A DNA stretch of 64,000 bases. It comes from an uncultured Spirochaetota bacterium (GTDB taxonomy: Bacteria > Spirochaetota > Brevinematia > Brevinematales > JAOACQ01). Location of the stretch: positions 258,056-322,055 of the forward strand of contig CAWAOD010000004.1 of assembly GCA_963783575.1 (NCBI GenBank). The letters run 5' to 3'. Every line of letters starts with the position of its first letter. The first letter of the stretch is position 1. Below the pieces are notes generated by a model. The model was not told the origin of the DNA. It was given only the letters and a program-made list of their open reading frames with translations, and searched no databases. Shown here piece after piece: positions 27,511 through 61,700 of this stretch. The translations under genes and the position numbers were made by a program.

Positions 27511-27516
27511 AACACT

Positions 27517-32542: not shown

Positions 32543-32841
32543 TAAAATCTTTTTTTCATGGCAAAATTTTACCCCGCAGCACAGATAGCTCTACCTCACA
32601 TCCAGCATCGTAATAATTAATTTAATAAATGACCTCACAGCAAAGTGGGGCTGGTATGGAAGAAATTTATTTGAAAAGTTTGAATATTTGTGTTTATGAT
32701 TATAAAATCTATAAATAGATATTTAAGTTCATTAGCAGGATGATCCAATAAAAAATCCAACATTGGATGGAAGCAAGTATTTTAATCATGATATATGAAA
32801 TTGATATAAGCAGAATATTAAAATATAGGAGCATAAAACCA

Positions 32842-34080: not shown

Positions 34081-34154
34081 TAAAATATTATTAAAGAAAT
34101 GTGGATAAAGTTATGGTTTCTGCCGGCATACAATAATTGACCTTGCATCATAAA

Positions 34155-38405: not shown

Positions 38406-38517
38406 TCTCCCTCAAACAATACAGAATAATCCGGCAATTCAATTTATTCAATTACAGACCGGGTTAAAAAATATCCGTTGTTATAATCATATATTATTAT
38501 ATTTGGGTATCACATGA

Positions 38518-38766
38518 TTATTTTGATATTGTTTTGTTATAAAATATTGTCACTAAATCATTGATATTTTTTGCGCCGAATAATTCAACTCTTGGGATTT
38601 CCAGCTTTAATGTCTCCATCATCATTGTTAGAATCTCAGCTCTATCAACGGAATTGGCCCCTAATTCTCTTAAGCTATCCGTTATTAAAAAATTATGCTG
38701 TTCCAATTCCGGAACAACTGTTTTTGTATGTATGACAATTTGTTTAAATATCTCATCTTTTGTCAT
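38518..38766 (-). CDS. acpK: donor acyl carrier protein of a beta-branching cassette (AcpK-like)
   Basis: LGANSVDRAEI motif; adjacent to HMG-ACP synthase. Confidence 0.88.
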   Translation of the reverse strand: MTKDEIFKQIVIHTKTVVPELEQHNFLITDSLRELGANSVDRAEILTMMMETLKLEIPRVELFGAKNINDLVTIFYNKTISK

Positions 38767-38963: not shown

Positions 38964-39782
38964 CTATAATGCAGTTAATCCGCCGTCTGCTGCAACCGAT
39001 TGCCCTGTAATATAAGATGCTGAATCCGAACATAACCAGAGCGCTACATTGGCAATTTCTTCCGCTGTTGCCATTCGGCCTATCGGCGTACTAGCCTCAA
39101 GGAAGTTTTTAATGTTTGGAAAATATTTTATAATCGGCTCTGTCATTCCTGATACAGTCAAAGAAGGACAGACCGCGTTTACTCGAATATTCTTTTTTAT
39201 AAATTCCGTGCCCGCGACTTTAGTTAGTCCGACAATACCGTGCTTACTTGCTATATAACTTGCCTGGCCTATTCCAACCAGCCCGGCGATTGAAGAGGTA
39301 TTGACAATAGCCCCTTTCCCTGCCTTTATCATTTCAGGGATTTGATATTTCATACAAAGCCAAATACCTTTAAGATTTATATTGATAACTTTATCCCATT
39401 GCTCTTCGGTGGATTCCAGCAAATATGAATTGTTTTGCAATGACTCCGGATTATCTTCCGTAAAATTTACGGCAGATCCCCCTTCAATACCGGCATTATT
39501 ATGCGCATAATCAAGCCTTCCATACTTCTTTATCGTGAAATCAACTAATTTTTTAACATTTTTCTCGATGGAAACATCCGTTTTAAAAAAACAAGCTTCT
39601 TTTCCGGAATTTTTGATTAATGAAACGGTTTCTTTGGCTCCGTCATTATTTATATCGGCAATAACAACTTTAGCATCATAATTCGAAAAGAGCACTGCCG
39701 ATGCCCTGCCAATGCCTGATGCCCCCCCCGTTACAATTGCCACTTTATTCTTAAATTCATTGTACATTTTTCGGTTCTCCAT
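38964..39782 (-). CDS. short-chain dehydrogenase/reductase
   Basis: TGGASGIG, NNAG, YIASK and DGG motifs. Confidence 0.92.
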   Translation of the reverse strand: MENRKMYNEFKNKVAIVTGGASGIGRASAVLFSNYDAKVVIADINNDGAKETVSLIKNSGKEACFFKTDVSIEKNVKKLVDFTIKKYGRLDYAHNNAGIEGGSAVNFTEDNPESLQNNSYLLESTEEQWDKVININLKGIWLCMKYQIPEMIKAGKGAIVNTSSIAGLVGIGQASYIASKHGIVGLTKVAGTEFIKKNIRVNAVCPSLTVSGMTEPIIKYFPNIKNFLEASTPIGRMATAEEIANVALWLCSDSASYITGQSVAADGGLTAL

Positions 39783-43030: not shown

Positions 43031-44540
43031 TTAAATTTCTAATAAACGCTTATTTAATATCTCTGCCGTTTCATTCAACAATTTCTCGGCAATTTCATCA
43101 GACATGCCTCATTTTCCAGCTTTCTAACTTTGTCCCCTTTACCCATTGGTTAAATGCCCCTAGAGCTGGACCGCAATGAACCTGAAAATCCACTACTTTT
43201 TCTTTGTCTCCCTCTAAAGCCAGCAATGTTGAATAATGGAAATACCACTTAAATATTAAGCTCATCTTATGCTTAGGATTTTTTTCCGCTTCATTGATTT
43301 CATCTTCAGGATAAAATGCTTTGCAATCATCATATACACTCTGAAAGGATCGTTTAAACCACTTGTCCTGAATGCGTCTTTTATCCTGCTCGCTAATTTC
43401 ATCCAAAGAATTATAAAACCGGTATAAATCGTAAAGCTTATTCGCCCTGGCTGGAAATAACACCCCCTTTTTAATCACCTGCACCCTCGCTCCCAATTCA
43501 AACATATCGCCGGCAGGCGCATACTCGGTGTCCTGTATATTTATCGTTTCCAATAGATCTTTTACTTCGCTGCTTGTTTTTGCTTCCACCGTGCACTGGT
43601 TGATAGAGCCTGTCACAATAAAGTCCGCACCTAAAATAAAGGCCGCCGCCGCTGCGTCAGGAGTTCCGATTCCGCCTGCAGCCCCTACTCTTACATTGGT
43701 CTTATATCTATATTTTTCCATTATTCTGTCTCTTATGCCAATAATTGACGGAATCAGTACAAAAGCGACGCCTTGGTCCGTATGCCCCCCGGAATCCGCC
43801 TCCACGCAAAGATCGCTTACAACAGGGACATATTTTGATAAATCCGCCTGCTCTTTGGTGATTTCTCCATTTTCCAGTAACCTGGTAATGATTTTTTCAG
43901 GCGCGGGACTTAATAACGCCTCGGCGACTTCCGGCCTTGAGATTTTTCCGATTATTCTGTTTTTTGCCGATATTATTCCATTATTATCTATGCTCAATCC
44001 CTTGGCCCTGAACTTGACCAGAGGTAAAGTCACATTAAAATATGCTGCGGCTTCGATATTTTTAACATTGTATTTCAAAAATAGATCTATTATACCGTTT
44101 TCAATCTCTTCATAAACCGGGTTTAATATATTCATCCCAAATGCCTGATGATCAGTAATATTACTTTGAATACGGCAAATCGCCTCTTCAATTTCCCTTT
44201 GGGTTAAGCCGCCGGTTCCAAAAAATCCCATCATTCCGGCCTTTGCCATTCTTATTACCATTTCTTCCGAAGCTACGCCTTTATACATTCCCCCGGTTGC
44301 ATATGAATATTTAACATTATATTCTTTCCTAAATTCCCCGCTTCCCAGAGTGCCTGCCGTTTTTTCCCCATATTTTTTTATTTGACTTACATCTTTCATT
44401 TCACCATTTAAAATATCCTCATTTATGCTCTTTGTATGATTGATTCCTTTATTTTTACCTGATGGAATTGAATTTTTGTTTTTAGATTTTTTCATCCCTT
44501 TTTCTTGTGACGTCTGCCTTGGGGTTACATAGGCTTTCAT
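43031..44540 (-). CDS. PfaD/PksE-type trans-acting FMN enoyl reductase; a +1 frameshift near 43100 removes the last ~22 aa
   Basis: EADSGGHTD, GAAGGIGTP, APAGDMFE and QVHCGPALGAFNQW motifs; the tail DEIAEKLLNETAEILNKRLLEI* continues in another frame to 43031. Confidence 0.88.
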
Positions 44541-44561: not shown

Positions 44562-45527
44562 TTAAAACATAATATTTGATAAATATTTTTGAATTTTTTC
44601 CAAATTTTGCAATTCATTCCCAAATGGGGTTATAATTTCAAAGGCTTTTGATTTTGAGCTTACGGATAGGTTTTTCCTGACAAAATTGGACAAGGTTCCC
44701 GACGGCCCTAAATCCAGGTAAATAAAGCTGCCTTTTTTCTCATTTTCAAAAATCGCTTCCGGAAAAAACATCTTTTCGCTGATTACATCCCAATAATATT
44801 TATAATTTACTTCATTTATTTCTTTTCCTTTTAAACATGAAATATAAGGCATTACAGGTTTTTTAAACTCCATCTTTTGTAAAAATTCCTGATATGCCGA
44901 TCTTGAAGGTTCTAATAATCTTGTATGAAAAGGAAAGGATACCGGCAATACCTGATTTAAAATTTCCCGCTTCTTTAAAAAATCCAGGATTATTCCAAGT
45001 TTTTCCCTTTCTCCTGAAATTACAAAATGTGAATCGAAGTTCCTGGAAACAAATTCGCTATTCTCATTTAATATTGGCGTATTAATAAATAAATCCGGGC
45101 TGTCAATTATGGCAAGCATAAATCCTTCCCGGCATTTTTCCTCAAGAATTTCCGCTTGTTTTATAACCGCTTTTAGTATTTCCTCATAGCCGCAAGTTTC
45201 TGCGATTACCGAGGCCGTAAACTCGCCAAGACTTGAACCGAGAACAATATCCGGCTTTATTCCTATATCCATAAGCAATTTTGCCATGGAGTATTCAACC
45301 ATAAAAATGGCAGGATGAGAAAATAGCAAGCGATTAAACACCTCGCTTTTACTTTTCTTCTCATCATACATATGATTGATTATTGAAGTTCCAATAATAC
45401 CATAAACAATCTCATCAAGCTTTATCATCCATGTTTTAAATGTTCTATTATTATCAAATATGATTCTGCCCATTTGATAATATTGGGATCCCTGCCCTGA
45501 AAACATAAAAACCAAAGAATTACGCAT
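44562..45527 (-). CDS. acyltransferase-like proofreading acyl hydrolase (PksD type)
   Basis: VFMFSGQGSQYYQMG, SHPAIFMVEY, GSSLGE and YLDLGPSGTL motifs. Confidence 0.8.
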   Translation of the reverse strand: MRNSLVFMFSGQGSQYYQMGRIIFDNNRTFKTWMIKLDEIVYGIIGTSIINHMYDEKKSKSEVFNRLLFSHPAIFMVEYSMAKLLMDIGIKPDIVLGSSLGEFTASVIAETCGYEEILKAVIKQAEILEEKCREGFMLAIIDSPDLFINTPILNENSEFVSRNFDSHFVISGEREKLGIILDFLKKREILNQVLPVSFPFHTRLLEPSRSAYQEFLQKMEFKKPVMPYISCLKGKEINEVNYKYYWDVISEKMFFPEAIFENEKKGSFIYLDLGPSGTLSNFVRKNLSVSSKSKAFEIITPFGNELQNLEKIQKYLSNIMF

Positions 45528-45573: not shown

Positions 45574-46722
45574 CTACCGGGTGTCTTTATTAAAATATCT
45601 TGTTAACCCAAACCTGGATATCATTTCCTGCTGTATTTGCGATGTGCCTTCAATTATCTCCAATACCTTAGCCTCTCTGAACAAGCGTTCAACAGGATAG
45701 CCGCTGCAGCAGCCGTTTCCTCCATGCACCTGAACGGCATCAATGGTCACTTCCATCGCAACTTTCGAGGTAAAATATTTTGCGATGGTCGTTTCCATTA
45801 TCGCATCGGGATGATTGTTTTTTCGCATTTCCGCGGCTTTCAGGCAAATGGCGCGGGCGGCATGAACCTTTGTTACGGCGTCGCCGATCATTCCCTGAAT
45901 CAGCTGATAGGTGCGGATCTTCTGCCCGAATTGGGACCGTTTCCTTGAATAGGTCACCATAGCCTCTAACGCCGCCTGCGCTATTGAAACTCCGGCCCAG
46001 GCAATGCTGTACCGTCCATGATCCAGAGCGGTATTTGCGATATAATTAAATCCGCTATTCAACTTGCCTACCAGGTTTTCCTTTGGAACTTTAACGTCTT
46101 TTAATTCTATTTCGGCTACCTGAGCGGCGCGGCTTGCTAGCAGCCCCTTGATCGGCCAAGTGGAAATCCCTTCAAATTCCCTTTCTACTAAAAAAGCGCT
46201 GATTCCATTGTCATCCGCCGCCATAACCAGAAGCAGATCGGCGGTATTACCGAACGTGATCCATTTTTTGCGGCCATTTATTATGTAATATCCGTTTTCC
46301 TCTCTAAATCTTGTTTGTATTCCTTTAGCGTCAGATCCGACTTCAGGTTCGGAAAGAGCAAAGGCCGCGATTTTTTTACCCGATGCCATTAAAGGGATCC
46401 ATTTCTCCTTCTGAGATTTGCTTCCCCACTTAAGAAGCGTTTCTCCAACAAGGGAGGTATGAACTGTTAAAAGGGCCCGGGTTGAGCAGCAAGCCTTCCC
46501 TATTTCTTCCGTAAACCTGCCGTAGTATTCGGGATCCAGTCCTAGCCCTCCCTGTTCTATGGGGAAAGACGCCGCCAAATAACCCTTTGCGGCCATCTTA
46601 GCGATCATTCCACTGTCGATTACACCTTTCTCATCGAAATCGGCAGCATATGGCCGAATCTCCTTGGCGGCAAATTCCCTCACCTCATCCAATATTTTTT
46701 CCTGATATTCTTTTTCGGCCAT
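45574..46722 (-). CDS. acyl-CoA dehydrogenase (FkbI/ZmaE type)
   Basis: FALSEPEVGSD, KKWITFG, LDHGRYSIAW and EIIEGTSQIQ motifs; adjacent to ACP and fkbH. Confidence 0.88.
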   Translation of the reverse strand: MAEKEYQEKILDEVREFAAKEIRPYAADFDEKGVIDSGMIAKMAAKGYLAASFPIEQGGLGLDPEYYGRFTEEIGKACCSTRALLTVHTSLVGETLLKWGSKSQKEKWIPLMASGKKIAAFALSEPEVGSDAKGIQTRFREENGYYIINGRKKWITFGNTADLLLVMAADDNGISAFLVEREFEGISTWPIKGLLASRAAQVAEIELKDVKVPKENLVGKLNSGFNYIANTALDHGRYSIAWAGVSIAQAALEAMVTYSRKRSQFGQKIRTYQLIQGMIGDAVTKVHAARAICLKAAEMRKNNHPDAIMETTIAKYFTSKVAMEVTIDAVQVHGGNGCCSGYPVERLFREAKVLEIIEGTSQIQQEMISRFGLTRYFNKDTR

Positions 46723-46734: not shown

Positions 46735-46983
46735 TTAATTTTTTTGCATCTTATTAACATATGAGACAATTTTATTTACGGAATTGAAATTGTTGATATC
46801 CAGATCCTTATCCGGCACGGATATATTGTATTGCGATTCAATAAAATTTATTATTTTCATCGCAAACATTGAATTTACGAAGCCCATTTTAAAAAAGTTA
46901 TCGTCGTTGCCGAATACTGCCTCATCGTCAAAAACATCCAGATTACTTTCAATCAGATTTCTTATTTCATCTACCATACTCAT
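46735..46983 (-). CDS. acyl carrier protein (FkbJ/ZmaD type)
   Basis: GFVNSMFAMK motif. Confidence 0.88.
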   Translation of the reverse strand: MSMVDEIRNLIESNLDVFDDEAVFGNDDNFFKMGFVNSMFAMKIINFIESQYNISVPDKDLDINNFNSVNKIVSYVNKMQKN

Positions 46984-46993: not shown

Positions 46994-48037
46994 CTATTTA
47001 CAGTTTATTTTTAGTTTAATATATGGCGGAAAATCCTGAATCGATGAAAGATCGTTTTCAAATAATATATTGCCGCCTTCATCCGAACTGACTTCCTGAA
47101 AATTTGAAAACTTATATGAAACAAGCATCATACGATTCTTTGAGGTTTTTTTAAAGTCCGCATGCAGTTTCTTGCCGTGTTTTTTGGTTTCCTTCATAAT
47201 AAAGGACATAAGGACCGTACCGACACCCCTTGAAATCACTCTGCAGGACATCAGCAGAAGCTTTAAGTGCCAGTATTCATCGCTAATCTCCACCAAGGCA
47301 AGGCCTATTTTGCCATACGAGCCGTATTTATCCTTTAATTCGCAGATATAAAGCTTATGGCTATCGCTGGTTCTGAACCTATTCAATTCACTATAGTCGT
47401 ATGTTACTCCCGTGGAATTCAGCTGATTGGTTCTGACCGTTAGCTCCTCAGCCCTTTGAAGGTCTTGCTCTTGGGCGTCGGAAATCTCAAATTCCATTTC
47501 AAGAGACGCCAGAAAGTTTTCATTGGGGCCTTCAAATGCTTCCTCCATTTTTTTTCTTAGTATGTCGGTTTTGTACATTCCGCGCCGCTTACTCGAATCC
47601 GGGGTTATAAACCTTGGATTCAGGCAGGGAGCATTGAGCAAGTCCATATATTCCGCAGCATCAACGCAAACAACTTCATTATGAACGCTCTTAACTTCAT
47701 CCCGCTCAAAGGCCTGGTCATCGACAAATAATATTGTGTCGAAACCGATATTAATATTTTTTTGAATCCTTTCAACCGAGGAAGACTTTGTGTTCCAATG
47801 AATTTCAGAATACAAAAAATAATCATCCAGCTTAAACTCTTTCAATTTTGCAGTTGCATCGTTAAAGTCGTTTTTACTGGCAATAGACTGCAGAATCCCG
47901 CGCGAATCAAGAGTTTTTATTATTTCCATAATGCCGGGTTTCAAGGTTACGTTTTTTGATTCAAGTAAAATTCCATCCCATATTGTATTATCAAGATCCC
48001 AGATGACACACTTAATTTCCTTTGACGCTTCAACCAT
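46994..48037 (-). CDS. fkbH: FkbH-family glyceryl-ACP synthase (HAD-IIIC)
   Basis: KCVIWDLDNTIWDG, ASKND, FVDDQAFE, RTNQLN and LLMSCRV motifs. Confidence 0.93.
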   Translation of the reverse strand: MVEASKEIKCVIWDLDNTIWDGILLESKNVTLKPGIMEIIKTLDSRGILQSIASKNDFNDATAKLKEFKLDDYFLYSEIHWNTKSSSVERIQKNINIGFDTILFVDDQAFERDEVKSVHNEVVCVDAAEYMDLLNAPCLNPRFITPDSSKRRGMYKTDILRKKMEEAFEGPNENFLASLEMEFEISDAQEQDLQRAEELTVRTNQLNSTGVTYDYSELNRFRTSDSHKLYICELKDKYGSYGKIGLALVEISDEYWHLKLLLMSCRVISRGVGTVLMSFIMKETKKHGKKLHADFKKTSKNRMMLVSYKFSNFQEVSSDEGGNILFENDLSSIQDFPPYIKLKINCK

Positions 48038-48219: not shown

Positions 48220-51200
48220 TTATTTAAACAGTTCAAATTGTCTCAGGCAATTATCCCACCATTTTTCGCCAATCTCCGTAAATTTAATTTTTGTGCCCTG
48301 CAGCATCCTACTGATATTTTCATGCTTCATGCCGCTTTTTATAAAATAAAATTCAAAAAAACTCATATTGTTCGAATCATTTCTCTGGAAGCTGTTTATC
48401 AATACCTTTTTCATATAAGTCTCGGGCAGACTTTTGACATATTGCAAACAATGATCGGTCCATTCATCAAAATTTACTTTCAATAACGAGGGGTTTTTCC
48501 CTTTCAGGAAATTAAAAAAGGTTTCTACAGGTAAAGGATCGGGATTCGTCAAATGATATATTTTTCCATAGCAGTCCTCTTTTTGGCTCACGGCGGCAAT
48601 TGCCCGCACGACATAATCGACCGGCACAAGATCGATTACCCCGCTTTTCCATTCAGGAACGCTTCCCACCTCATTAAACACTTTCAGAAAGTTATGTATC
48701 AGACTGCTTTCAACAACACCGTATCCTGTTTCCGAATCTCCGGTAATATTTCCGGCGCGAAAGACCGTTACTGGAACGCCTTCTCTCTGCGCCTGAAACA
48801 GATGGTGCTCGCTAACCCATTTTGACTGACCGTAGCCGTTTATTAATCCTTTTCCGCTTTCTATCAGCTCCTCGGATTGATGAAATAATATTGAATTCCC
48901 TGCCAGGTAGCAGCAGACTCCGCTTGATGAAATAAAATGAACCGGCTTTATATTTTTACTTGCCGCAAACTCTATTATCGATATTGTTCCGTCTACATTT
49001 ACCGGCTTATGAGACTGGTAATTCAGTATATGATTGACATAAGCCCCGCAATGATAGATCATCTCAATGGAGCCGCATAATTCATCATAGGCTTTTTTAG
49101 CCATTCCCAGCCGCCGTTTCGATAAATCCCCTAAAACCGGAATGATACGGGATTGGTACCCGGGATTCCATAATCTGTATTTTTCAAAGTTATTTTGAAT
49201 CCGCTTCAGAGCCTGTGACGAAGTCTTTTCTCTCACCAGGCAAAACAGCATTTTTGAGTTGTCCTTTAATATCTCATTGGCCAAATAAGCTCCAACAAGT
49301 CCCGTTACGCCTGTCAGGAATATTTTTCCCGGCCGGCTATTATGTATAAAAGCCTTTAATTCTTTATTCGGGAATATTCCGGCCGGTAATTCCCTGTCTT
49401 TCTCCCAGGGAGATATGGATTCATCGATTTTATCGGAATATGCTTGAGGTTTTGATGGATCCAATTGATTTAAAATACCCTGGATTGTGAATTCAGAATA
49501 AAACCGCATTTGATCCAATTCCACTCCGAATTTCTCCTTTATCTTACCCAGGAATTCAACTCCGGCAATGGAATCCATTCCATATTCCAGCAGCTGCTTT
49601 CCGGAATTGATCTCAAAATCAGGAGATAAGCCTAAAAATTCTTTAAGAAGATCGGTTAAGAGACTTAATGTATCCTTAACAATATTCTTCGGTCTATCCG
49701 CTTTATTATCCTGCTCTTTTGCCCCGCTTCCTCTTTCCGCAGCGGAATTGCGCGCTTCCTGAACTGGCGCGGCCCAATACCTCTCTTTCTGAAAAGGATA
49801 TGTCGGCAAAGAAATCCGTTTTGCTTCAATATTATTATTGAGCGTTTCCCAGGGAATATCGCCGCCCTGTGTCCAATAATATGCGATCTTTTCATAATTA
49901 TTTCTTTCGAGGATCAATTTTTCTTCATTTCCCTCCAAGAAAAACGGACCGATGTTCCGGTTATCTTTTTCAATATCGCCTTCATAAATCTTCATATTCT
50001 CTTTAATGGCTTGATTTCCGTCAATTGATCGCAGATAAGACTGCATCGCGCCGGAAAGCTCGTTCAGGCTTTTCACTACAAACGCCGCCCGGAACCGCAT
50101 CTTCTCCCGCCCGATCTGAAGGGTATACGCCAGATCCACAAGGTCAATATGATGTTTTTTTTGAACGAAATCAAGCATATTCTCAATGATAGCCCTCAAA
50201 CTATCCTTGTTTTTAGCGGAAAATATTATTATCCGGGGTAAATCGGCAGGCTCATGACAAGCATCAGAAGGACGGTATTCCTCAATGACCGCATGCGCGT
50301 TTGTTCCACTATTACCGGTTGCAGTTATTGCGCATAATTTCAACCTGTTTCCCTCGGTCTCCCATTTTTGATTTTCATTATCGACTATAAAAGGGCTATC
50401 CTTGATATTGATAAACTCATTGGCGTTTTCAAAATTCCTTGTACCGGGAATAACGTGATGCTGCATTGCCAATAAAAGCCCGATAATTCCGACTATGCCT
50501 GAAGCCGCAAATGTATGTCCGATCAACGGCTTAATCGACCCTATCCTGCAAAATCCTTTCTTATCCGTATATTTTTTAAAAGCGTTCGTTAGCGCCTGGA
50601 TTTCAATTGAATCGCCTAGCTTTAATCCCAGGCTATGCGCCATAATATATTGAAAATCGGCGGGATTGATATGGAATTTATCGTAAGCGTTTTTAACCAG
50701 CTCTTCCTGGCTGATCGGATTCGGCGCGTTAATTCCGTTTGTCCTTCCGTCATAATTGACCCCGCTGGCTTTTATACACCCATAAATCTGATCATTATCG
50801 GATATTGCCTTTGATAAAGGCTTAAGAAGAACCACTGCCACCGCTTCACCGGGCACCAATCCGTTTGCCTGACGGTCAAAAACACGGCACTTGCCTTCCG
50901 GCGAAAGCATTCCTGCCTGTCCCATTCCTATATATGAAAGCGGCGATATAGCCAGGTTTATTCCGCCTACAAGCGCCATCTCGCAGTCACCGAAGCGAAG
51001 CGCGAGGCATGCCTGATGCAGGGCGACCAGGCCCGACGAGCATGCGGTTGTCAGTGACATATTCGGGCCCTTAAGGTCCAGGAAATAGGCGATACGCGCC
51101 GACAGGGTCGCATTCTGATTGCAGTTAATGTTGCTTTCACCCGTCAGGAACATATATTCACTTTCCTCCACGCCCACATAAACGCCGCATGTTTTCCCCT

Positions 51201-54200
51201 TAATCCGCTCGCCCATATAACCGGCGTCCTCCAGGGCATGCCAAGCCTCCTGCAAAAACAGGCGCTGCTTCGGATCAATAAGCCTGGCCTCTTTCGGCGC
51301 TATTTCAAAAAACAATGGATCAAAACAATCCACATCACTTAAAAAGCCACCCCATTTGGAATTTGTTTTACCCTTCTCTTTCTTCGGATCTCCGTAAAAT
51401 TCCCGCCAATCCCAGCGTTCTACGGGTACTTCCGTAATGCAGTTCCTTCCGTTCTGTATATTTTCCCAGAACTCATTGACGTTTTCCGCTCCGGGAAAAC
51501 GCCCGCTTATGCCGATGATAGCTATCGGTTCGATAGGCCCCATATTTTGAGGGATAATTCCAGCCGGAAGGCAGGATTTCCCGGTCATTCCAAAATGCCT
51601 GCCTTCCGGTACATTTGAAATAATCTCAGGAGTCGCCGCTCTATCTTCATTATAGAATTTATTTATTATATCTTTATGATCGGTCATAAAATATTTTATC
51701 AATTGCCTTATTGTAGGATGGGCAAAAAACAATGCCGGTATTATATCCAGACTATAATAATCCGACAATACCCCCGCGAAATTTCCAAGTGTGATAGAAT
51801 CGAAACCAAAATCGGCCAGATTGGAATTCACATCAATCCTGTCTTGGGGAAGCTTTAGCAGGCCGCTTATGAATCTCTTCAAATCAATCTCAATGCATTT
51901 CTCGGAACTTAATCCCTTCATTTCAGGTAAACGGCCCTTATTTGAATAAATAAGACTTTCTTTTAATTCCGGGGAGGCATTCTCAATTACCGTGTCCGGA
52001 TTCTCCCCCGATCCGTCCCATACCGGCTGATAAAAACTTTCCCAGTCAATATTGACGCCTAGTAATGCCAGCCTGCTCACTCTCTTTATTAGAAAATGAA
52101 GATCGGATACATTTTGGTGGGAGGGCTTTATCGTATTGATGATTCTTTCTTCAGCTCCTTCATTGATGAATCTCTTTACCAAAAGGCCCAAATCATTCCC
52201 CGGGCCGATCTCAATAAAAACCGATTCATTATTATCCTCAAGCAAAGCATTGATCCCATCGGAAAATAATACGGTGTTTTTCAAATGGCTTGACCAGTAC
52301 TTTCTATCCACCGCTTCTTCATCTTTAATCCATGTACCTGTAAGGTTGGAGATAAACGGAATCCTGGGAGGCTGTAAATCAAGCTCGTCGAACTTTTTCT
52401 CGAAAGACTCCGTTATCGGGTTCAGCAGATCCGAATGTATGGCGTAAGGCACCTGCACCGGTACACAAAACAGTCTTTTCTTTTTTAGTATATTCTGCAG
52501 CTCATCAACCGATTCCGGTTTCCCTGAAACGACACATGTAAATCCGTTATCGATGGCCAATTGTACATCCTTATTTAGATATTGCCGTATCTCATTCGCG
52601 GGACAGGGGATGCTTAACATAGCCCCTTTTATTGTGCCCTTTAAAAGCTCTCCCCTGTAAACAATCATTTTTAAAGCATCCCGCAGCGAAAAAACCCCTG
52701 CCAAAGTGGCGGTAATATACTCGCCAAAACTATACCCAATCATAGCATAGGCTTTGATCCCCCATCCTATTAAAAGCTTCGCCATGGAATATTCGACACT
52801 GAAGAGAATCAGCTGTGACGTTTCCACATCCTGAACATCATGAGTAATACCGCCTGAATCCTTTTCCGGATAAAGGAGAGGCTTAATATCCTTTTGGGTA
52901 AGCTCTTTCACCTCGTTAAATACGCTGTCCATTACCTCCCTGAATATGTTCTCTTTTTTATATAATTCCAGCCCCATATTAATGTACTGCGAACCCTGAC
53001 CGGCAATTACAAAAATGACCGGCCTGGATTTTTTTTCGGATATAACAGTGTTTTCCCTGTTCGGCTTTTCCATGCCCAATTCGGATATAACCTGCAGGGC
53101 ATCCTTGCATACGAGCACCCTGCGGTAATTCAAAAGCTCTCTTTTTGCAAGGTTATAAGAGTAATTTGTTAATGAGGCTTTTTTTGTTCCCTTAAGATCT
53201 TCGATAACCTTTCCAGCTATCTTATCCAGTTCTCCCTGGTTTCCACCTGAAAGCAGCAAAATCTTCCACTCTCTTTCGGGGTCATTTTTGATGTTTGAAT
53301 TCAGCGGTTTATCCGGCGTAAAGCCCAAGAAGCGGTATACCCGTGAAGGTTTTCCGGCCAAAACCAGATTTTGAATCTTTTTTTGGGATAATATTCTCTC
53401 AAACAAATCCAATCCCTCTTCGGTTTCCAGAAAACGCTGCCCGCTGGATTTGATATACATTCTCATCGCCTCTTTATCGTCCGCGCCCATTCCCCCGTCT
53501 TTCCATTGAGGCCAATTGATTACAATGCTCTTCCCCGGCTTATTCATCCGGTTTCTGCAATCAGCGTAGGACATTAAAAAACGATTGGCCACCGCATAGT
53601 CGCACCCTCCGAAATCGCCGATAATCGCTGCTAAAGAAGAGAAGTAACAAACAAAATCAAGAGGCTCATCCTTAAAAACATCATCAAGCACAAGCGTGCC
53701 GGTAATCTTGGGAAGAGTAACGGCGTTGTATTCCTCCAGGTCTTTCTCAAAAACAATCTGCCTGCTCATGACGCCTGCGGCATGGATGATTCCGTTGACC
53801 TGGCCGAACGCATTTTTCGCCTTTTTCAGCGCTTTCTGCATTTGGATAGGATCGCTAACCTCGGCTTGCACATAAATGACCTTTGACCCCATTGCCTCAA
53901 TTCCTTTAATACCGGCTTCTTTCTTTTCATCGGGCCGGGACCTGCCGGTTAAAACCAGATTTGCCCTGTATTTTTTCGCAAGATGTCCCGCAAAAATAAG
54001 CCCTAGCCCGCCGGCGCCTCCCGTTATCAAATAAGTTCCTCCCACTTTTAGAGGAATTTCTCCTTTTTCAATATCCGACATTTGAATCCGGCATACAAAT
54101 CTTTCCTTTTCTTTATATAAAACAGTTTTATTTGACGGCACTTGGAGCTCGCCATATAAACACTCGGTCCATAACCGCATTCCGTTATTATTGTCAACGT

Positions 54201-55737
54201 CCTTTTGAAAAATAACAGTAACCCGAGTATTCGGCATAATAATATTCAAGGTACGCTCAAAACCGATCCATGACTCTGCGTAACACTGGTCTATCGGATT
54301 ATCATATTGCCCTGCCAGAAATATGCGGCGGGTCTTAAGCCTTGCCGATGCCATCGCCTGTATTATAAAGACTATATCCGAAGCATCCCGGATTTTGGAT
54401 GGATCCTCGAGCGCATATAAATATAAAATCGCGTCCACCTCTTTATAATCGGTCCCGATGCTCTTTAACACCTCTTCGTATGAATCCCGGTCTTTTGCCT
54501 CGTATTTATTTTTAGAATGCTTTTTATATCCGGTACCTTTTGAAATAAAGATCAGTTCCATTTCAGGGGCAATTTCCTTTAATCTGCCCTTTATGATTTC
54601 CTGGTTATTTATATCAGAGATAAAGCATAGCAATGTGGTTATTTTAACATTGCCTTCTTTTTTCAACGGCTCTTTTGTCCATACTTCCTCAAAGGTCATA
54701 AGTTCGTAGTACTCATCTTTAACCGGAGGGTTTATTTCCTGCATTTTTATTTTTTTAACCGTTTTTTCGGTTAATTCATCCCATGCTTTTGTAACAAAGC
54801 CTCTCATCCGCAGGCAGATATTTCCCTCTTCATCAAAAATATCCACATCCATTTTTTTCTCATTAAGACCCTGAATATCAATATCTAATGATCTGATATA
54901 AACCCATAAATCGGATGGGAAATCTTTAAGAATATCCAGCTTATTCAGGGCAATTGCCTGAAGCATTGAGCTATTGGGGCCGGATAATCCGACGCTTGCC
55001 TGTATTATCCCCTCCATAAGAGAGGGATGTAAAGTAAATTCACCTTTTGTTCCGGTAATGGCATCCGGTAATGATATCCTTGCCAGGACCCGGTTATTTC
55101 CCTTATATACCTCTTTTAGTACCTGGTAGCCTGAATAATAATCTATACCCATGGTTTTGAAACTCTCATAAATGGTTTGAGGGGTAAGAAACTCCAAATT
55201 ACATTCGTTTTTGATGCCCGCCAAATCCGTTTTTGGAATATCCAAAGCCGCAGAAAACATCATGTTCCCCCAAAAATAACTTGTTGGATTATCATTTTGA
55301 TTTTTAAAAGCCTCGAATAAAACGCCGCCGCTTTCGGACCGCAAAACCGCCATATTAAGCTCGACCGGTTCATTCTTCAGCATAACCGGCTGGTTCCAGA
55401 CAATATTGCTTAATGAGATTATTTTCTTTTCTTCCGCATCTTTCCCAATGGAGCTTTTTACAGCGGCATATGCCATTTCAAGAAGCGTCAACTCGGAAAT
55501 TCCCTTCAATCCCCTGATTATCCGATCCTTTATAAAAAATTCCTCCCCGGTAAAAATTGATTTGAACCGCTGTTCTGATAAATCGGATGTATTTTCATGA
55601 AGCAATGGATGCAGTTTGCGGATTTTATTCCCGGTCTCCCGTGTATAGCTTTGTCCCTCGCTGCCGGACGCCCAAATAATGCTCCTGGGCAAATGGATAT
55701 GTAGGCAGAGCGCAGCGTGCCGGTCCGGTTTCCCCAA
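48220..55737 (-). CDS. trans-AT PKS, C-terminal part: DH0-KR-(linker)AT-ACP-KS(0)-ACP-thioester reductase
   Basis: LHPLLH (DH), GGAGGLG (KR), AGQGSQ/GYSFG/YAIH (AT), GFDSI (ACP), TACSS with AHSLG (KS), GMDSI (ACP), TGVTGLVG and YGQSK (R domain). Confidence 0.92.
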   Translation of the reverse strand: MGKPDRHAALCLHIHLPRSIIWASGSEGQSYTRETGNKIRKLHPLLHENTSDLSEQRFKSIFTGEEFFIKDRIIRGLKGISELTLLEMAYAAVKSSIGKDAEEKKIISLSNIVWNQPVMLKNEPVELNMAVLRSESGGVLFEAFKNQNDNPTSYFWGNMMFSAALDIPKTDLAGIKNECNLEFLTPQTIYESFKTMGIDYYSGYQVLKEVYKGNNRVLARISLPDAITGTKGEFTLHPSLMEGIIQASVGLSGPNSSMLQAIALNKLDILKDFPSDLWVYIRSLDIDIQGLNEKKMDVDIFDEEGNICLRMRGFVTKAWDELTEKTVKKIKMQEINPPVKDEYYELMTFEEVWTKEPLKKEGNVKITTLLCFISDINNQEIIKGRLKEIAPEMELIFISKGTGYKKHSKNKYEAKDRDSYEEVLKSIGTDYKEVDAILYLYALEDPSKIRDASDIVFIIQAMASARLKTRRIFLAGQYDNPIDQCYAESWIGFERTLNIIMPNTRVTVIFQKDVDNNNGMRLWTECLYGELQVPSNKTVLYKEKERFVCRIQMSDIEKGEIPLKVGGTYLITGGAGGLGLIFAGHLAKKYRANLVLTGRSRPDEKKEAGIKGIEAMGSKVIYVQAEVSDPIQMQKALKKAKNAFGQVNGIIHAAGVMSRQIVFEKDLEEYNAVTLPKITGTLVLDDVFKDEPLDFVCYFSSLAAIIGDFGGCDYAVANRFLMSYADCRNRMNKPGKSIVINWPQWKDGGMGADDKEAMRMYIKSSGQRFLETEEGLDLFERILSQKKIQNLVLAGKPSRVYRFLGFTPDKPLNSNIKNDPEREWKILLLSGGNQGELDKIAGKVIEDLKGTKKASLTNYSYNLAKRELLNYRRVLVCKDALQVISELGMEKPNRENTVISEKKSRPVIFVIAGQGSQYINMGLELYKKENIFREVMDSVFNEVKELTQKDIKPLLYPEKDSGGITHDVQDVETSQLILFSVEYSMAKLLIGWGIKAYAMIGYSFGEYITATLAGVFSLRDALKMIVYRGELLKGTIKGAMLSIPCPANEIRQYLNKDVQLAIDNGFTCVVSGKPESVDELQNILKKKRLFCVPVQVPYAIHSDLLNPITESFEKKFDELDLQPPRIPFISNLTGTWIKDEEAVDRKYWSSHLKNTVLFSDGINALLEDNNESVFIEIGPGNDLGLLVKRFINEGAEERIINTIKPSHQNVSDLHFLIKRVSRLALLGVNIDWESFYQPVWDGSGENPDTVIENASPELKESLIYSNKGRLPEMKGLSSEKCIEIDLKRFISGLLKLPQDRIDVNSNLADFGFDSITLGNFAGVLSDYYSLDIIPALFFAHPTIRQLIKYFMTDHKDIINKFYNEDRAATPEIISNVPEGRHFGMTGKSCLPAGIIPQNMGPIEPIAIIGISGRFPGAENVNEFWENIQNGRNCITEVPVERWDWREFYGDPKKEKGKTNSKWGGFLSDVDCFDPLFFEIAPKEARLIDPKQRLFLQEAWHALEDAGYMGERIKGKTCGVYVGVEESEYMFLTGESNINCNQNATLSARIAYFLDLKGPNMSLTTACSSGLVALHQACLALRFGDCEMALVGGINLAISPLSYIGMGQAGMLSPEGKCRVFDRQANGLVPGEAVAVVLLKPLSKAISDNDQIYGCIKASGVNYDGRTNGINAPNPISQEELVKNAYDKFHINPADFQYIMAHSLGLKLGDSIEIQALTNAFKKYTDKKGFCRIGSIKPLIGHTFAASGIVGIIGLLLAMQHHVIPGTRNFENANEFINIKDSPFIVDNENQKWETEGNRLKLCAITATGNSGTNAHAVIEEYRPSDACHEPADLPRIIIFSAKNKDSLRAIIENMLDFVQKKHHIDLVDLAYTLQIGREKMRFRAAFVVKSLNELSGAMQSYLRSIDGNQAIKENMKIYEGDIEKDNRNIGPFFLEGNEEKLILERNNYEKIAYYWTQGGDIPWETLNNNIEAKRISLPTYPFQKERYWAAPVQEARNSAAERGSGAKEQDNKADRPKNIVKDTLSLLTDLLKEFLGLSPDFEINSGKQLLEYGMDSIAGVEFLGKIKEKFGVELDQMRFYSEFTIQGILNQLDPSKPQAYSDKIDESISPWEKDRELPAGIFPNKELKAFIHNSRPGKIFLTGVTGLVGAYLANEILKDNSKMLFCLVREKTSSQALKRIQNNFEKYRLWNPGYQSRIIPVLGDLSKRRLGMAKKAYDELCGSIEMIYHCGAYVNHILNYQSHKPVNVDGTISIIEFAASKNIKPVHFISSSGVCCYLAGNSILFHQSEELIESGKGLINGYGQSKWVSEHHLFQAQREGVPVTVFRAGNITGDSETGYGVVESSLIHNFLKVFNEVGSVPEWKSGVIDLVPVDYVVRAIAAVSQKEDCYGKIYHLTNPDPLPVETFFNFLKGKNPSLLKVNFDEWTDHCLQYVKSLPETYMKKVLINSFQRNDSNNMSFFEFYFIKSGMKHENISRMLQGTKIKFTEIGEKWWDNCLRQFELFK

Positions 55738-58700
55738 ATAATGAATCCCATGCTATGCTATATCCCTGGCAATAGAAATCTGCCAGAGCATAAAGATTAT
55801 CCATGTACTGATCCGGCTTGGAATGAAGGGATTTGCCTTCATCAAGCAAATCCTGTATGTATTTCTTAATCGCTTTTTGCCCCTTGAATCCGCGGGGTGT
55901 TTTTCCCCTGAAAACATTGGGCGGTTTGTCTTCGCCGTCAATCTGCCGTAAAAGATAAAGCGCGTCCTCAATTTCATTAACTACAATCGCGCAGCGATAT
56001 TCAAAATGATGCCGGCCTGTCAATAACGTGCGGCTAACCCGCGGGAGACTGTATTCGGACACATCCCTGTTATTTAAAAATTTAACCATATCACTTATTT
56101 TTAATTTCAGGGCGTCCTCCGTTTTAGCGGAAAGCGTTAATATATAATATGGTGCCTTTTCAAAAAAAGCATCGCCTTTTCTTTCATAACTCTCTAAAAC
56201 CATATGCGCGTTCGTACCGCTCATCCCAAAAGCACTCACCGCTCCGGTCAATGACCCACCCTCCCCGGCAAGCCATAACTTTCTGCTTTTATTTACGAAA
56301 AACGGGCTGTTTTTCCAATTGATATAGTCATTTTCCGATTCAATGTTAAGGCTTGCCGGGATGGTCCTATGCCGGAATGCCAGAATTAGGCTTATAAGAT
56401 TCACGATGCCTGAAGCCGCGAAAGTGTGACCGAGGTGGGTCTTTATCGATACAATCGCGCAATACTGCTCTTTGGAGGTATATGCCTTATAGGCATCATT
56501 CAGCGCATTGATCTCAACCGGGTCTCCCAATGCCGTTCCCGTACCATGGGTAAAAACGCATCCGATTTCCTCGGGATTTATTTTGTACCGGTCATAAACC
56601 ATTTTTAACAGGTTGGTTTGTGAAAGCCCATTTGGGGCTGTAATGCCGTTTGTTTTACCGTCATAATTGATTCCGCTTCCCTTAATAACAGCATAAATCG
56701 GGTCTCCGTCAGCCTCCGCTTTTGATAATGTCTTTAGAACTACAGCGGCCACGGCTTCCCCTACGACCATACCGTTAGCGCGCTTATCAAAGGCATAACA
56801 ACGGCCATCCGGCGAAAGCATTCCAGACTGAATCATACCGAGATATATTGTCGGCGTCAGCAATATATTGACTCCCGCCGCTATTGCCGTATCGCACTCC
56901 CCATTCCGCAAGCTCATGCAGGCCTGATGCGCCGCTACCAATCCCGAGGAGCATGCCGTGTTGATCGCCATGTTCGGGCCATGAAGGTCAAGAAAATAGG
57001 CAAGCCGGGCAGCTAAAATTCCCTCATGATTGGAAGTAACGCTGGTATTTCCCCCCGTTATATACTGATAATCCCCGGGTTCTACGCCAACAAACATGCC
57101 GATTTTATACTTATTGATTTGCGCCGGTCCATAACCTGCATCCTCCAGGGCTTTCCAGGATTCCTGCAATAAAAGGCGCTGTCTTGGATCCATGATCTCG
57201 GCTTCACGGGGGGAAATTTGAAAAAACAGCGGGTCAAACTCGTCCACTCTTGAAAGATACCCGCATTTCCAGATATCTTTACCGAAAGCCCAATCGGGGC
57301 TTTCGGTAAATTTACGCCAATCGAACCGTTCGGGCGGAATTTCCCGGACGGCCTCTTTTCCCTCTTCCAATATGTTCCATAATTCATCAACATTGCCAGC
57401 CTGGGGAAACCTTCCGCTCATTCCGATAATCGCTATCGGTTCGTTCTGGCTTTGAACGATGCCTCCCCGCATCATACGGGAAATATTGAATGCCGTCTTT
57501 TTTACTGAAGTGTCTTCAATAGCGGGAGCATCCTTTATTATTATATCTTTTCCATAATATTCCTGAATGAGTGTTTTATGTTCGGCCAGGAAATACTTTG
57601 TCAATTCCTCAATGGTCGGGTATGTGAAAAATAATGCCGGTGTAAAATCGATATCATATAAACTGGATATGTTGTCTGCGAACCTCCCCAGACTGATGGA
57701 ATCAAACCCAAAATCCTTGAAATTGATATCAAGATCGATTTTTTCTTTTGGATATTGAAACAGCTTGCTAATAATCTCCTTAATATTCCATATGATGCAT
57801 TCCTCAAGGCTCAACCCCTTCATTTCAGGCCGCCGCCCTTTGCCCGATGTTTTCACCTGTTTTTTTATACTGGAATCTTCGTTTAATAGCAATTGATCAT
57901 TGGACTCTCTGACCTTTAATAATTTCAGGAAACGGTTCAAGCGGGAGGGGTCCCCTTCCAGTACTATTATTTGATCGGCCTTTAAGGCCAGCCCACGGTT
58001 CAGGGCCTGAATTCCCGTTTCGCTTCTCATGCTGACCATGCCCGATCTTTCCGTAATCCTCTTTTCGGTCCATTCATCCACTCCCATTCCGCCCTCTTTC
58101 CAAAGCGGCCAATTGATTGAAATCGTTTGACCCGAGCGTTCTTTGGCAAGCACCTTTTCATTTCTATATTTTGCGTAAACATCCATAAAATTGTTTGCAG
58201 CCGCGTAATCCGCCTGGCCGGGGTTACCAAAAACAGACGCAATGGATGAAAAAACAATGAAAAAATCAAGCGGCTGGTCTTTTGCAGCAAGATCGATATT
58301 TACAAGCCCCGCGACTTTCGGCGCCATGACTTTATGAACTTCCTCACCGTTTTTTTTAACAATAAAATTATCATGCAAAACACCGGCCGAGTGGATAATA
58401 CCGGTGAGATTCCCAAAATCATTCCCGATGCTCTTTATGAGATCATTAATCTCTTCTGCATCTACGACATCAACTTGTTTATAGATAATTTCAGCATCAA
58501 ATTTTTTTAATCCATTCAATTGATTCTGCTTTTCTTCAGTCAATTCCGATCTGCCCGTTAATACTACAACCGCTTTTTTTACTTTCTGCGCTATTTCCTT
58601 CGCAAATATGAACCCAAGGCCGCCGGCGCCGCCTGTGATCAGATAGACCCCCCCGTCCTTCCATGGAATACCTGCCCCGGTTTGAGAGAGATCCTCCTTC

Positions 58701-61700
58701 CGTAAACCCAATAAATATCTCTTATTATCCTGATAGCGGATATGAAATTCATCGGGGCTAACAACGGTGTCTTTTATTTTTTGAAAAGCCTCTTTAGTAT
58801 CCTCTTCCGGTCCAATTTCTATTAGCTGAGCGACAAGTTTTTGATTTTCCTGGACGGCAGTTTTTAACAGGCCCGCTAGAGCTGAAAAAAGAATCTTTTC
58901 ACCCCGGTCAAACACCACCACCTGGATTAAAAACTTATCTTTCGGATTTCCTTCGAAAAACTTTTTTATATCCTCGAATAACCTGATCGCATAATCTTCA
59001 AAGCGTTTTGATATATCATCAGATTCCGAATGAAATATGATGTATTCATCTTTTAACAAGTATGGAATATCCTTAATGAAGAGATTATCCGGCTCGCAGA
59101 AATAGATCTTATGATTTTTGTATTCGGTGCTTGTCGATTGATTGGTAACTTCCTCCTCTGTCCAATAAGGTTTAATAATAAATTTATCAAGAGGAAATGA
59201 AGTTTCTGATGATGAAATCAAATCCTTTACTATTCCGGTTTTGATCCCAATCATTGAAATGCATATTTTACCGCTTTCATCAATAATATCAATATCCATA
59301 TCCCGTATTTCTCCGGCTTTAATATTTCCGGTGCCATAACGGATATAAGCCCACATTTCCTCGCCGCAACGGCCAAAAACGTTGAACTTTTTCATGGAAA
59401 CGGGAAAATTGATATCCTTTTTCTCTGACTCTATGGACAAAGCGGCGGATGCCTGTAATGCCGCTTCCAGCAGGACCGGCTGCAGTGTAAACTTATCAGA
59501 ATTGGAAGATGAGGAATGCAAAACCAGTTTTGCGAACACCTTGTCTTTTCCTGTAAATATCTCTGCTATCCCCTTATTTTTCTCATTATATTCAATTCCT
59601 TTATCTTTGAAAATTTTATAAAAATCCTCTCCCGAAATCGTTTTTTGCCTGCAATCATCCCTCAAAGCACCTATGTTCATGACCGGTAAATTGTTATTGG
59701 ATAAAAACCCGATATTACCACTATTGAAAGTCTCCTCATTGCCTGAATCCTCTTTTTTACCGTAGATCTCATAATTGACTTCGCCGTTATTTTCGGGAAC
59801 AAGCCTGATGTGAATCTGTTTTGGCTGTTTGTTTAATATGCATGGCTTATTCCAGATAATATTTTTTATGCAGATCCTTGTTTCGTATTCTTCCTGTATT
59901 ATTTCAAAGGCTTCTTTTATAGCGTCATAGGCCATTTCAAGGCATATAAACCCCGGTATGATTTTTTGATCTTTAATAGCATTTTTTAACAGATAAGATT
60001 CATTTCCCTTAATAATAGCCGCGTATCTCTGTTCCGAAATAATAGATGTATTTTCATGCAATAAAGGATGCAAATTGGGTCTATCGTCCTGAAAATCCGA
60101 CTCTATAAATTTCATTTCCGATTCTGGGATCCAGTACCTTTCCCTCGCGAATGGATACGTCGGAAGGCTTACCCGCTTCGGCTTCTCCCCTCCATACAGC
60201 CTGTCCCAGTCAAACTCCAGCCCTTTCACCCACAAATCCAGCAGCTTGCCGTATTTCCCCTTCCCTATCCAGCTATCAACCGCCTTCTGAAGCTCCTCGT
60301 CGGCAGTGAAAACGCTCAAGGCCTCCTTATTCCTCTTCGCCTGTCCCTCGTACAGGTCCTCTATATCCTGTTTTCCATCAATGTATTCCTTCAATTTTCT
60401 TTTCAATTCCTCCGTCGAGCTCACTATCAAGCCCAGCCTCTCCTCCATCGCTTCACGCCCTACCTGCAGCGTGTAGGATATGTTTTCCAGATCCATGTCA
60501 GTGTACTCATTCTCTTCTATGTCCCTCAATAAATTTACCGCCTGCTCCCTCGCCTGCTCTTTGCTCTTAGCCGACAATACGATGATTGACGGATTATTTA
60601 TCCCTTTTTTGTCCTTATTATCTTCTTTTGCCTCGTATTCCTCTATGATCACATGCGCGTTCGCCCCGCCAGCTCCGAACGACGATATCCCCGCTATCCT
60701 CGGGTATTCCTCCGTCTTTCCGTCAATCTCTATCACCGGCCTTTTCCACTCAGTCAGTTCATGCTGGACCGTAAACGGAGTCTTGCTGAAATCTATATTC
60801 GGGTTCAGTACCCCGGAATGAAGCGAAGGCACCAGCTTCCTGTTTTTCATCTGCAGCAATACCTTCGTTACTCCCGAGATCCCCGCCGCGCTCTCGCAAT
60901 GCCCTATATTGCTCTTTACTGACCCTATCGCGCAGAACTGCCTGTCCTGCGTATACTCCGCGAACGCCCTCGTTAGCCCGCTGATCTCTATCGGGTCTCC
61001 CAGCGATGTTCCTGTCCCATGCGCCTCGATGTAACTGATTGTCCTTGGATTGATTCCCGCCTTCTTAAACGCCTTTCCTATCACCTCGGATTGCGCCTTC
61101 GGATTGGGCACCGTATAGCCGTTCGTCTTTCCGCCATGATTCAGCTCCGTCGCCTTTATTATACCGTATATGTGATCCCTGTCCTCTATTGCTTTCGGCA
61201 GCGGCTTCAGCAATACAGCTCCCACTCCCTCACCAGGCACGTACCCGTCTCCGCCCTCCCCGAAGCTTTCGCATCTCCCCTTGCTCGACACGAACTTTCC
61301 CTGCGCAAGCATGAGATACTTGTTCGGATGGATCGATACGTTCACCCCTCCCGCTATCGCCAACCCGCATTCCCCGTTCCTTATCCCGCTGCAGGCCATG
61401 TGCATCGCCGTTAGCGACGATGAGCACATCGTGTCCAGCGCAACGCTGGGTCCATGAAAATTAAAGAAATACGATGCCATGTTCGCTATGGAAGACGGGT
61501 TACCCGGTATCGCCACCGGTCTTCCCTTCGCCGTCAGTTGCGCTCCGTACAGCTGGTACTCCTCGTACATCACCCCTACATATACCCCGACTTCCCCGCC
61601 TATCCCGCCGCCGTTGTCACCCTCCTGCGCTTCACGCCGGTACCCCGCGTCCTCCAGCGTTTCATACACGCATTCCAGAAACAGCCGCTCCTGCGGGTCC

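Follow-up and report, generated by a model that had tools for sequence, protein, structure and literature searches.

The free-standing acyltransferases (ATs) of trans-AT polyketide synthase (PKS) lines are mostly malonyl-specific, and the few site-specific exceptions are separate proteins (PMC6164871). Such exceptions are KirCII of kirromycin (ethylmalonyl-coenzyme A, CoA), OzmC of oxazolomycin (methoxymalonyl-acyl carrier protein, ACP) and ZmaF (aminomalonyl-ACP), each of which provides a non-malonyl extender for one AT-less module (PMC6164871, PMC9057759). Embedded ATs are also described in the mostly AT-less lines of kirromycin (PMC5818483) and of the clostridial CcelB and CpapD/F (PMC3250452), where whole cis-AT modules are present whose ketosynthases (KSs) stand apart from the trans-AT KSs. 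The closest relative of solved structure for the AT described here is found in module 2 of ZmaA, part of the zwittermicin A nonribosomal peptide synthetase (NRPS)-PKS of Bacillus cereus (4QBU; PMC4207774), in the canonical order KS-AT-ketoreductase (KR)-ACP. In this study, we analyzed a 64,000-nucleotide stretch of DNA (hereafter the window) from an uncultured Spirochaetota bacterium (contig CAWAOD010000004.1 of GCA_963783575.1), which encodes a KS-DH0-KR-AT-ACP module, DH0 denoting a dehydratase (DH) without its catalytic His. We propose, with a probability of about 75% and on the basis of sequence comparison, that a ZmaA-type cis AT seated in the KR-ACP linker loads hydroxymalonyl site-specifically, yielding an α,β-diol that is followed by reductive release. 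The KS, KR and ACP of this module are of trans-AT type and the AT alone was probably imported, unlike in kirromycin, CcelB and CpapD/F. Likewise, the selectivity of this AT would come from a covalent tether within the module and not, as for KirCII, OzmC and ZmaF, from a separate protein.

The AT-bearing gene is a single open frame of 2505 amino acids (48220..55737; minus strand, as are all PKS domains below), for which Pfam and our own domain profiles agree on the order DH0-KR-(linker domain plus AT)-ACP-KS-ACP-thioester reductase. Its real N-terminus is probably continuous with the upstream PKS open reading frame (ORF; 55625..62347; ACP-KS-DH0-KR-ACP-KS), and the T run between KS and DH0 (55674..55676) carries a one-base frame shift that is likely an assembly indel. 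The upstream ORF also supplies the KS of the AT-bearing module (56192..57442), which has its Cys, HGTGT and second His intact and belongs to a trans-AT clade of KSs following KR-ACP modules. The dehydratase (54790..55614) reads KDRIIRG where the DH of a related contig discussed below (L001) has HHRING; because its catalytic His is missing, the DH0 label given in an earlier note on this DNA is right. The KR (53326..54705) has structural and catalytic subdomains, GDFGGCDY and the catalytic Tyr, Ser and Lys, and falls into a trans-AT non-LDD (A-type-like) clade. The absence of the LDD Asp points to an A-type enzyme according to the rule of PMC5331325 that was used here. The best PDB matches (PksL/PksJ for the KS, MlnE/PksJ for the KR) agree with the trees, which place both domains in trans-AT lineages.

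The KR ends with GKPSRVYRFL (53326-53355), and the 415 amino acids at 52030-53274 match the crystallised ZmaA fragment end to end. They comprise the KS-AT linker (flanking) domain of cis-AT modules, which travels with the AT (53029..53274), the AT of the ZmaA/GYSFG lineage (52030..53028) and a post-AT helix ending in DWESFY. Within the AT, AGQGSQY is located at 52984-53004, the active-site Ser motif GYSFG, the same as in ZmaA-AT, at 52723..52737, a hydrophobic carrier motif F-C-V followed by five residues and YAIH with the catalytic His at 52435..52470, and EIGPG at 52198-52212. The trans-AT KR-ACP linker motif KGRLPEMKGLS (51907-51939) then leads into the module ACP (51685..51939 including the motif; Ser intact, GFDSI). 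The position of the AT between KR and ACP, as claimed in the earlier note, is thus borne out by the Pfam order (KR 567-747, AT 908-1216 and ACP 1286-1349 of the 2505-residue protein) and by all the named motifs in one frame. The interval of about 415 amino acids given there between the KR end and KGRLPEMKGLS holds for the ZmaA-like linker plus AT, whereas the full gap is 462 amino acids, compared to 28 in the preceding module. The AT follows a KR and not a KS, which departs from the canonical cis-AT order KS-AT-DH-KR-ACP. Its covalent attachment and its KS-AT linker domain, collinear with the ZmaA linker plus AT, nevertheless mark it as cis-AT in origin, while the flanking KR and ACP are ordinary trans-AT partners, in line with the graft into a trans-AT module linker suggested earlier. 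In sequence the linker domain is degenerate, with a CurL-like Pfam match below the cut-off (E 6e-5), and the LPxYxF segment that follows the post-AT helix in ZmaA is missing here and in the two other KR-AT cases described below. In an AlphaFold model of the module (13-row input alignment, some rows misaligned; mean pLDDT 71.8, pTM 0.50) every domain folds and the top Foldseek match is 4QBU.

Downstream of the module ACP lie a last KS (50278..51531), a terminal ACP (49465..49659) and a thioester reductase release domain (48223..49323; TIGR01746 above cut-off). The last KS has HSLGL in place of HGTGT, a motif that is altered in non-elongating KS0 domains, and it groups with a support of 1.0 with three KSs, two carrying HSVGS and one QSVGS; two of the three sit in terminal KS-ACP positions and one has lost its His. 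We therefore consider this KS to be non-elongating with fair confidence, judging from its motif and its position in the tree, and the description of the AT-bearing module as the last elongating one is likely right.

The identity of the AT is well-illustrated by its PDB matches, as ZmaA-AT comes first with 350 bits (residues 2-415 aligned) and the next entry reaches 171 bits. It shares 43% identity with ZmaA against 33% with the malonyl AT ZmaK, and the catalytic Ser-His dyad and the active-site Arg are all intact. ZmaA-AT is characterized by GYSFG, GAAH and a hydrophobic M-C-M motif, and in vitro it used neither malonyl-CoA nor methylmalonyl-CoA, although the same acyl groups were used somewhat when carried by ZmaD (PMC4207774). 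The F-C-V of the window AT aligns with M-C-M and is hydrophobic in the same MXW-type manner. In our collected set, the third residue of this RXR (carrier) motif is hydrophobic in 84 of 91 GYSFG ATs but in only 5 of 255 GHSIG ATs; GYSLG ATs mostly retain HAFH and a basic residue, so that the Tyr alone is not diagnostic. The phylogeny called for in the earlier note gave a congruent picture. In a FastTree tree of 121 ATs, the window AT and two further ATs that follow a KR form a clade (0.999) within the clade of all 78 GYSFG ATs including ZmaA (0.79), and in an IQ-TREE quick tree of 40 of these ATs the three reach an SH-aLRT of 100 and the 22-row all-GYSFG clade with ZmaA 97. The three are not sister to ZmaA inside the GYSFG clade, yet the whole clade is separated from the malonyl ATs. 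In these trees P0038 is the B. cereus ZmaA cluster protein; Zma names were assigned by gene order in a zwittermicin cluster, those of ZmaF and ZmaK being confirmed by motif positions in PMC4207774. Compared to ZmaA module 2, the window module thus shares the AT lineage, GYSFG, the hydrophobic carrier motif, the linker and the post-AT helix. It differs in having its AT behind the KR of a trans-AT-type module, YAIH instead of GAAH, and no post-AT segment, which ZmaA has kept.

The same arrangement is encountered twice more. P0003, a JGI protein of 3109 amino acids, is organized as KS-KR-ACP-KS-KR-AT, with an AT near the C-terminus that is 59-60% identical to the window AT and carries GYSFG and YAIH. 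It is followed by a short tail resembling a docking helix and by no ACP on the same chain, and this tail suggests that the ACP is probably located on the next protein. L001, a contig of a GTDB metagenome-assembled genome (G001:C49), encodes a protein of the domain order C-A-PCP-KS-KR-AT-ACP-KS-DH; its AT (GYSFG, YAVH) is 54% identical to that of the window, its ACP is preceded by the same linker motif, and its host is distant from the window host (RpoB 47-55% identical). The AT catalytic residues are kept in all three lineages at 54-60% identity. Among 879 AT rows from 418 proteins and 168 loci, a sample biased to query matches, 737 follow a KS and five rows, corresponding to the three distinct genes, follow a KR. 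Word-index searches and scans of 100 relatives, of 400 genomes from the same phylum and of 200 G001 relatives yielded only P0003 as a further member, 146 new proteins of a representative library yielded none, and neither did a metagenome contig scan (52 loci, best 30% identity) or the best 25 of 185 plasmid records (all Bacillus, 42-44%). A GTDB scan with two exact patterns found only L001 among the best 80 of 123. Multi-domain scoring and the pattern limits may let members escape these scans, and proteins above 5000 amino acids were covered by the representative search only. P0417 was rejected as a KR-AT case as its ACP lies between KR and AT. The KR-AT arrangement is real, recurrent and rare. 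We found no report of the orders KR-AT-ACP, KS-KR-AT-ACP, DH-KR-AT or KS-KR-AT in the literature covered, supplements and key subscription reviews lying outside that coverage; the enzyme class is known, but the architecture of the module is new.

Both clusters with a visible neighbourhood also encode the enzymes for a hydroxymalonyl unit. In the window these are an FkbH glyceryl transferase/phosphatase (46994..48037; 60% identical to ZmaN), a stand-alone ACP (46735..46983), an FkbI-type acyl-ACP dehydrogenase (45574..46722) and an FkbK-type 3-hydroxyacyl dehydrogenase (35192..36049; 52% to ZmaG), all on the minus strand. The cassette is complete, matches ZmaN/D/G/E of zwittermicin as FkbH/ACP/FkbK/FkbI and is closer to the hydroxymalonyl than to the aminomalonyl set, for the ACP (ZmaD 45%, 69 bits; ZmaH 39%, 48 bits) as well as for FkbI (54% to ZmaE, 38% to ZmaI). 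The contig of L001 carries FkbK-FkbH-ACP-FkbI (58-74% identical to the window proteins) together with a beta-branching set, a tandem AT and an enoyl reductase; its stand-alone ACP is less clear-cut between ZmaD and ZmaH (72 versus 61 bits, 42% versus 46%). Among other genomes with cis GYSFG ATs, a stand-alone FkbH (64-68%) is present in four out of four, and none was found in the one genome with a GHSIG AT, which is 57% complete. No stand-alone serine adenylation enzyme for aminomalonyl is present among the ORFs of the window cluster or the G001 cassette. FkbG-type O-methyltransferases fall in PF01596, and no such gene lies in the assembled part of the window cluster, the two PF01596 matches of the genome assembly of the window (G000) being outside the cluster. 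The G001 cluster has none either, its cassette being fully flanked without an O-methyltransferase beside it and the four PF01596 matches of G001 lying elsewhere.

The flanking sequences give indications on the origin of the insertion. All three host KRs fall within a single trans-AT clade of the non-LDD type (67 rows, 0.918), scattered among those of ordinary KR-ACP modules. Of 65 modules in this clade, 24 have the pre-ACP linker motif, as opposed to 2 of 93 modules elsewhere. Since the motif is typical of the KR clade, KR and ACP seem to have belonged together before an insertion separated them, and a fusion of two modules through loss of an ACP and a KS is disfavoured because both keep their native linker motif. 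In AT-less proteins the KR-ACP interval has a median of 93 amino acids (n=154), and the six other gaps above 400 amino acids correspond to C-methyltransferase modules (five by motif, one by eye). These KR-MT-ACP modules are alike in placing a domain of about 400 amino acids that modifies the α-carbon into the KR-ACP interval, but the window insert is an AT and its host KR is from a different clade. The insertion of a linker-plus-AT unit from a cis-AT module, into the slot used by C-methyltransferases in other trans-AT modules, is hence the likely origin. The KS-AT linker domain and the Trp of the post-AT helix are kept only in the window copy, the linker being absent from L001 and P0003, and by these sequence features the window copy may be nearest to the original graft. 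A single entry of the AT followed by shuffling, or several moves, may both be compatible with these data. Co-descent of AT and KR was considered and dropped, as the KR tree gives it no support. Recombination of module blocks is common in trans-AT PKSs, for which more than 150 module architectures are cited (PMC7930024). Whether a portable plug-in AT lineage exists, in which a ZmaA-type AT left its KS, entered KR-ACP linkers and moves between distant bacteria with the hydroxymalonyl cassette, is in our view an evenly balanced question.

In the proposed mechanism, FkbH would load glycerate onto the stand-alone ACP at 46735, and FkbK and FkbI would oxidise glyceryl-ACP to hydroxymalonyl-ACP; glycerate held on a stand-alone ACP and oxidised twice has been described for the oxazolomycin enzymes, where the same kind of cassette is accompanied by an O-methyltransferase (PMC9057759). 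The AT would dock this ACP via its hydrophobic F-C-V patch and pass the unit to the module ACP, tethered at a distance of 50 residues; this closeness would let the AT prevail over the free malonyl AT, perhaps with editing by a GSSLG protein of the cluster. The upstream KS, with its intact HGTGT, would then condense, and the KR would reduce to an α,β-diol which the dead DH would leave intact. The likely non-elongating last KS would pass the chain to the terminal ACP, and the reductase would release a 2,3-dihydroxy aldehyde or, with further reduction, a 1,2,3-triol end. The predicted outcome, α-hydroxylation followed by β-reduction, often with a KS0, resembles that of the α-hydroxylation bimodules of MupA (mupirocin), OocM (oocydin) and CalD (PMC10952193, PMC8739492), which in contrast depend on O2-requiring flavin monooxygenases. 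No luciferase-like flavin monooxygenase (PF00296) is present in G000 or G001, both incomplete, and the control was positive in 9 of 14 genomes. For the sorangicin PKS, a figure legend states that a hydroxymalonyl unit is most likely used (PMC13754210).

The hydroxymalonyl reading, to which the earlier note had come as well, is favoured because motifs, tree position, cassette and a second cluster with the same combination concur. Several observations weigh against it. By sequence, GYSFG-type motifs would indicate an ACP-borne donor and not hydroxymalonyl over methoxymalonyl in particular. The lid motif YAIH (GAAH in ZmaA; neither HAFH nor YASH) sits at a position that varies widely across the 91 GYSFG ATs and therefore cannot fix the acyl group. 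A cassette gene within 10 kb was found for only one of five cis GYSFG loci (L002-L006). The last KS retains all three catalytic residues (Cys-His-His). The connections in the AlphaFold model have a pLDDT below 50, and the model does not place the AT confidently relative to either KR or ACP. The tree does not unite the three host KRs as a monophyletic group and so offers no evidence of a single origin of the whole module. About five single-base frameshifts affect the window part of the cluster: in the HMGS gene (37139-38405), at the end of the enoyl reductase (43098), at 55674, at ~62350 and at ~63665. Finally, the window ends contig C4, and the modules further upstream are probably to be found where contig C9 begins, across a gap; with the cluster split in this way, a methyltransferase could lie in the gap.

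That last point bears on the possibility that the same architecture uses methoxymalonyl-ACP, an O-methyltransferase being encoded in the gap or at some other place, or that it uses a different ACP-borne unit, for which a further extender cassette located on contig C10 is one potential source. It was for methoxymalonyl ATs that hydrophobic RXR motifs were originally described, and ZmaA-AT also accepts acyl groups other than hydroxymalonyl when its ACP carries them (PMC4207774). We nonetheless regard this as unlikely, considering the location of the PF01596 matches outside both clusters and the fully flanked G001 cassette, the absence of a stand-alone adenylation domain for aminomalonyl from both cassettes, and a C10 cassette that has a ZmaF-like AT of its own and in which FkbH is reduced to a remnant. 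The AT could also be a tethered trans-acting enzyme that serves several ACPs with hydroxymalonyl or, should the last KS still elongate, the terminal ACP, to give a longer polyol. The C-terminal AT of P0003 without an ACP on the same chain would suit this scheme, as would the intact catalytic triad of the last KS and the DH0-KR type of the upstream window modules. It is rendered distinctly unlikely by the ACP with its native KR-ACP linker directly behind the AT in two of the three cases, by the separate malonyl trans-AT of the cluster and by the grouping of the last KS with the HSVGS/QSVGS KSs, one of them without its His. The use of malonyl-CoA or methylmalonyl-CoA by the AT, or an inactive passenger AT with the free AT serving the module, is very improbable. 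YAIH does begin with Tyr as the methylmalonyl motif YASH (PMC4207774) and the linker domain is degenerate, but no Gln follows the Ser, HAFH is lacking, the carrier motif is hydrophobic and the catalytic residues are kept in three lineages, with the cassette present in both clusters whose neighbourhood is visible.

The state of the assembly gives rise to two other explanations. Apart from the frameshifts above, more are found on C9 and an insertion sequence (IS) lies within the accessory region, whereas rpoB and rpoC are intact, so that genuine decay of this copy of the cluster, with a real architecture but no product, has to be considered. We deem it quite improbable: a crude scan of 5180 adjacent gene pairs, false positives included, flags 275 frameshift candidates spread over 15 of 18 contigs, and the 7.5-kb AT-bearing ORF has no in-frame stops or motif decay and no frameshift within its KR-AT-ACP stretch. 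The IS (DDE_Tnp_1_4; 40157-41539) is present in the genome as 13 near-identical copies; of the 11 other full-length ones, 5 are one A short in an A7 run, which fits indel errors (or a real allele). It is scarcely credible that the assembly wrongly spliced a piece of cis-AT sequence into a trans-AT gene, an artefact that the earlier note had considered. The window does lie at a contig end of an indel-bearing assembly, and the short contigs of the only read run listed (X1, share 0.10) are in some cases identical to parts of the window, none of them extending over the AT or its junctions. Misassembly is unlikely because two independent assemblies place the same AT lineage behind a trans-AT KR. 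Moreover, G000 contains no second copy of this AT (next best 35%), the GC content and GC3 (GC at third codon positions) of the AT match those of the flanking domains, and the frame is open over both junctions.

The surroundings of the module are those of a trans-AT system. None of the KSs in the window, nor any of those where C9 begins, has an intact AT behind it, and the cluster is a trans-AT PKS with one embedded AT. It encodes, on the minus strand, a free malonyl trans-AT (36145..36993; GHSVG, GAFH; TIGR00128 372 bits, cut-off 261), a free AT homologue with GSSLG (44562..45527) that groups with AT1 of the G001 tandem AT and that we take to be an acyl hydrolase, a trans-acting PfaD-family enoyl reductase whose frame is broken near its end (43098..44540) and a short-chain dehydrogenase/reductase that is a candidate reducer of the released aldehyde (38964..39782). 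Further accessory genes downstream of the PKS comprise an MFS transporter and a beta-branching set. This set is split (32767-34931 and 37139-38766), with its KS on the opposite strand and one enoyl-CoA hydratase visible, as in the G001 cluster. Other PKS regions of G000 show related modules. Another trans-AT cluster holds the second extender cassette (C10:51538-55016) with a ZmaF-like free AT, FkbI, an ACP, a methyltransferase and, close to a copy of the IS, what is left of a broken FkbH; a PKS at C10:39446-40402 also contains a fused FkbH domain. At C9:4183-6432, as at residues ~550-930 of P0003, a long degenerate stretch that resembles an AT but has no catalytic Ser comes after the first KS, and an AT remnant is also present in ZmaA module 1. 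A third trans-AT PKS stretch (C11:1-37000) consists of near-identical repeated modules, its terminal reductase being 52% identical to that of the window. In G001 (C49:11329-20691), the upstream PKS begins with a GNAT-like stretch and has a C-methyltransferase-like stretch before the NRPS-KS-KR-AT-ACP protein (labels by eye). Beyond these hosts, L002-L006 and many of P0121-P0236 form a large cis GYSFG AT clade in hybrid clusters of Acidobacteriota/Aminicenantes, with the lids HAIH, RAIH, HALH and HGVH; the four genomes analyzed there all encode a stand-alone FkbH, and ACP-borne extenders may be common in those clusters. Within the window, a Wood-Ljungdahl gene set at 18328-29277 (a CooC-like ATPase, carbon monoxide dehydrogenase (CODH), acetyl-CoA synthase (ACS), two corrinoid iron-sulfur protein subunits and RACo; CODH/ACS genes 19119-27510) lies beside the cluster and suggests an anaerobic, possibly acetogenic host.

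In summary, a cis AT in a KR-ACP linker would represent a third, tether-dependent solution for site-specific extender use in trans-AT lines. The arrangement also indicates that an AT can be kept in the absence of its usual packing partner, the KS, and even when its linker domain is missing too, and tools that sort modules by KS plus AT are likely to misread such a module. Placing a chosen extender in one module is a long-standing goal of PKS engineering, for which natural boundaries are offered here; if the proposed reading is true, the three forms found in nature (one that includes the linker domain, one that lacks it and one split ahead of the ACP) mark usable junctions, and a plug-in AT gives any module its own extender. 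For this Wood-Ljungdahl-bearing host it would be an oxygen-independent route of α-hydroxylation, as predicted from its genes. It suggests how anaerobes install the α-hydroxyls that flavin monooxygenases make in aerobic trans-AT systems and, if true, gives them an oxygen-free route to α-hydroxy polyketides.

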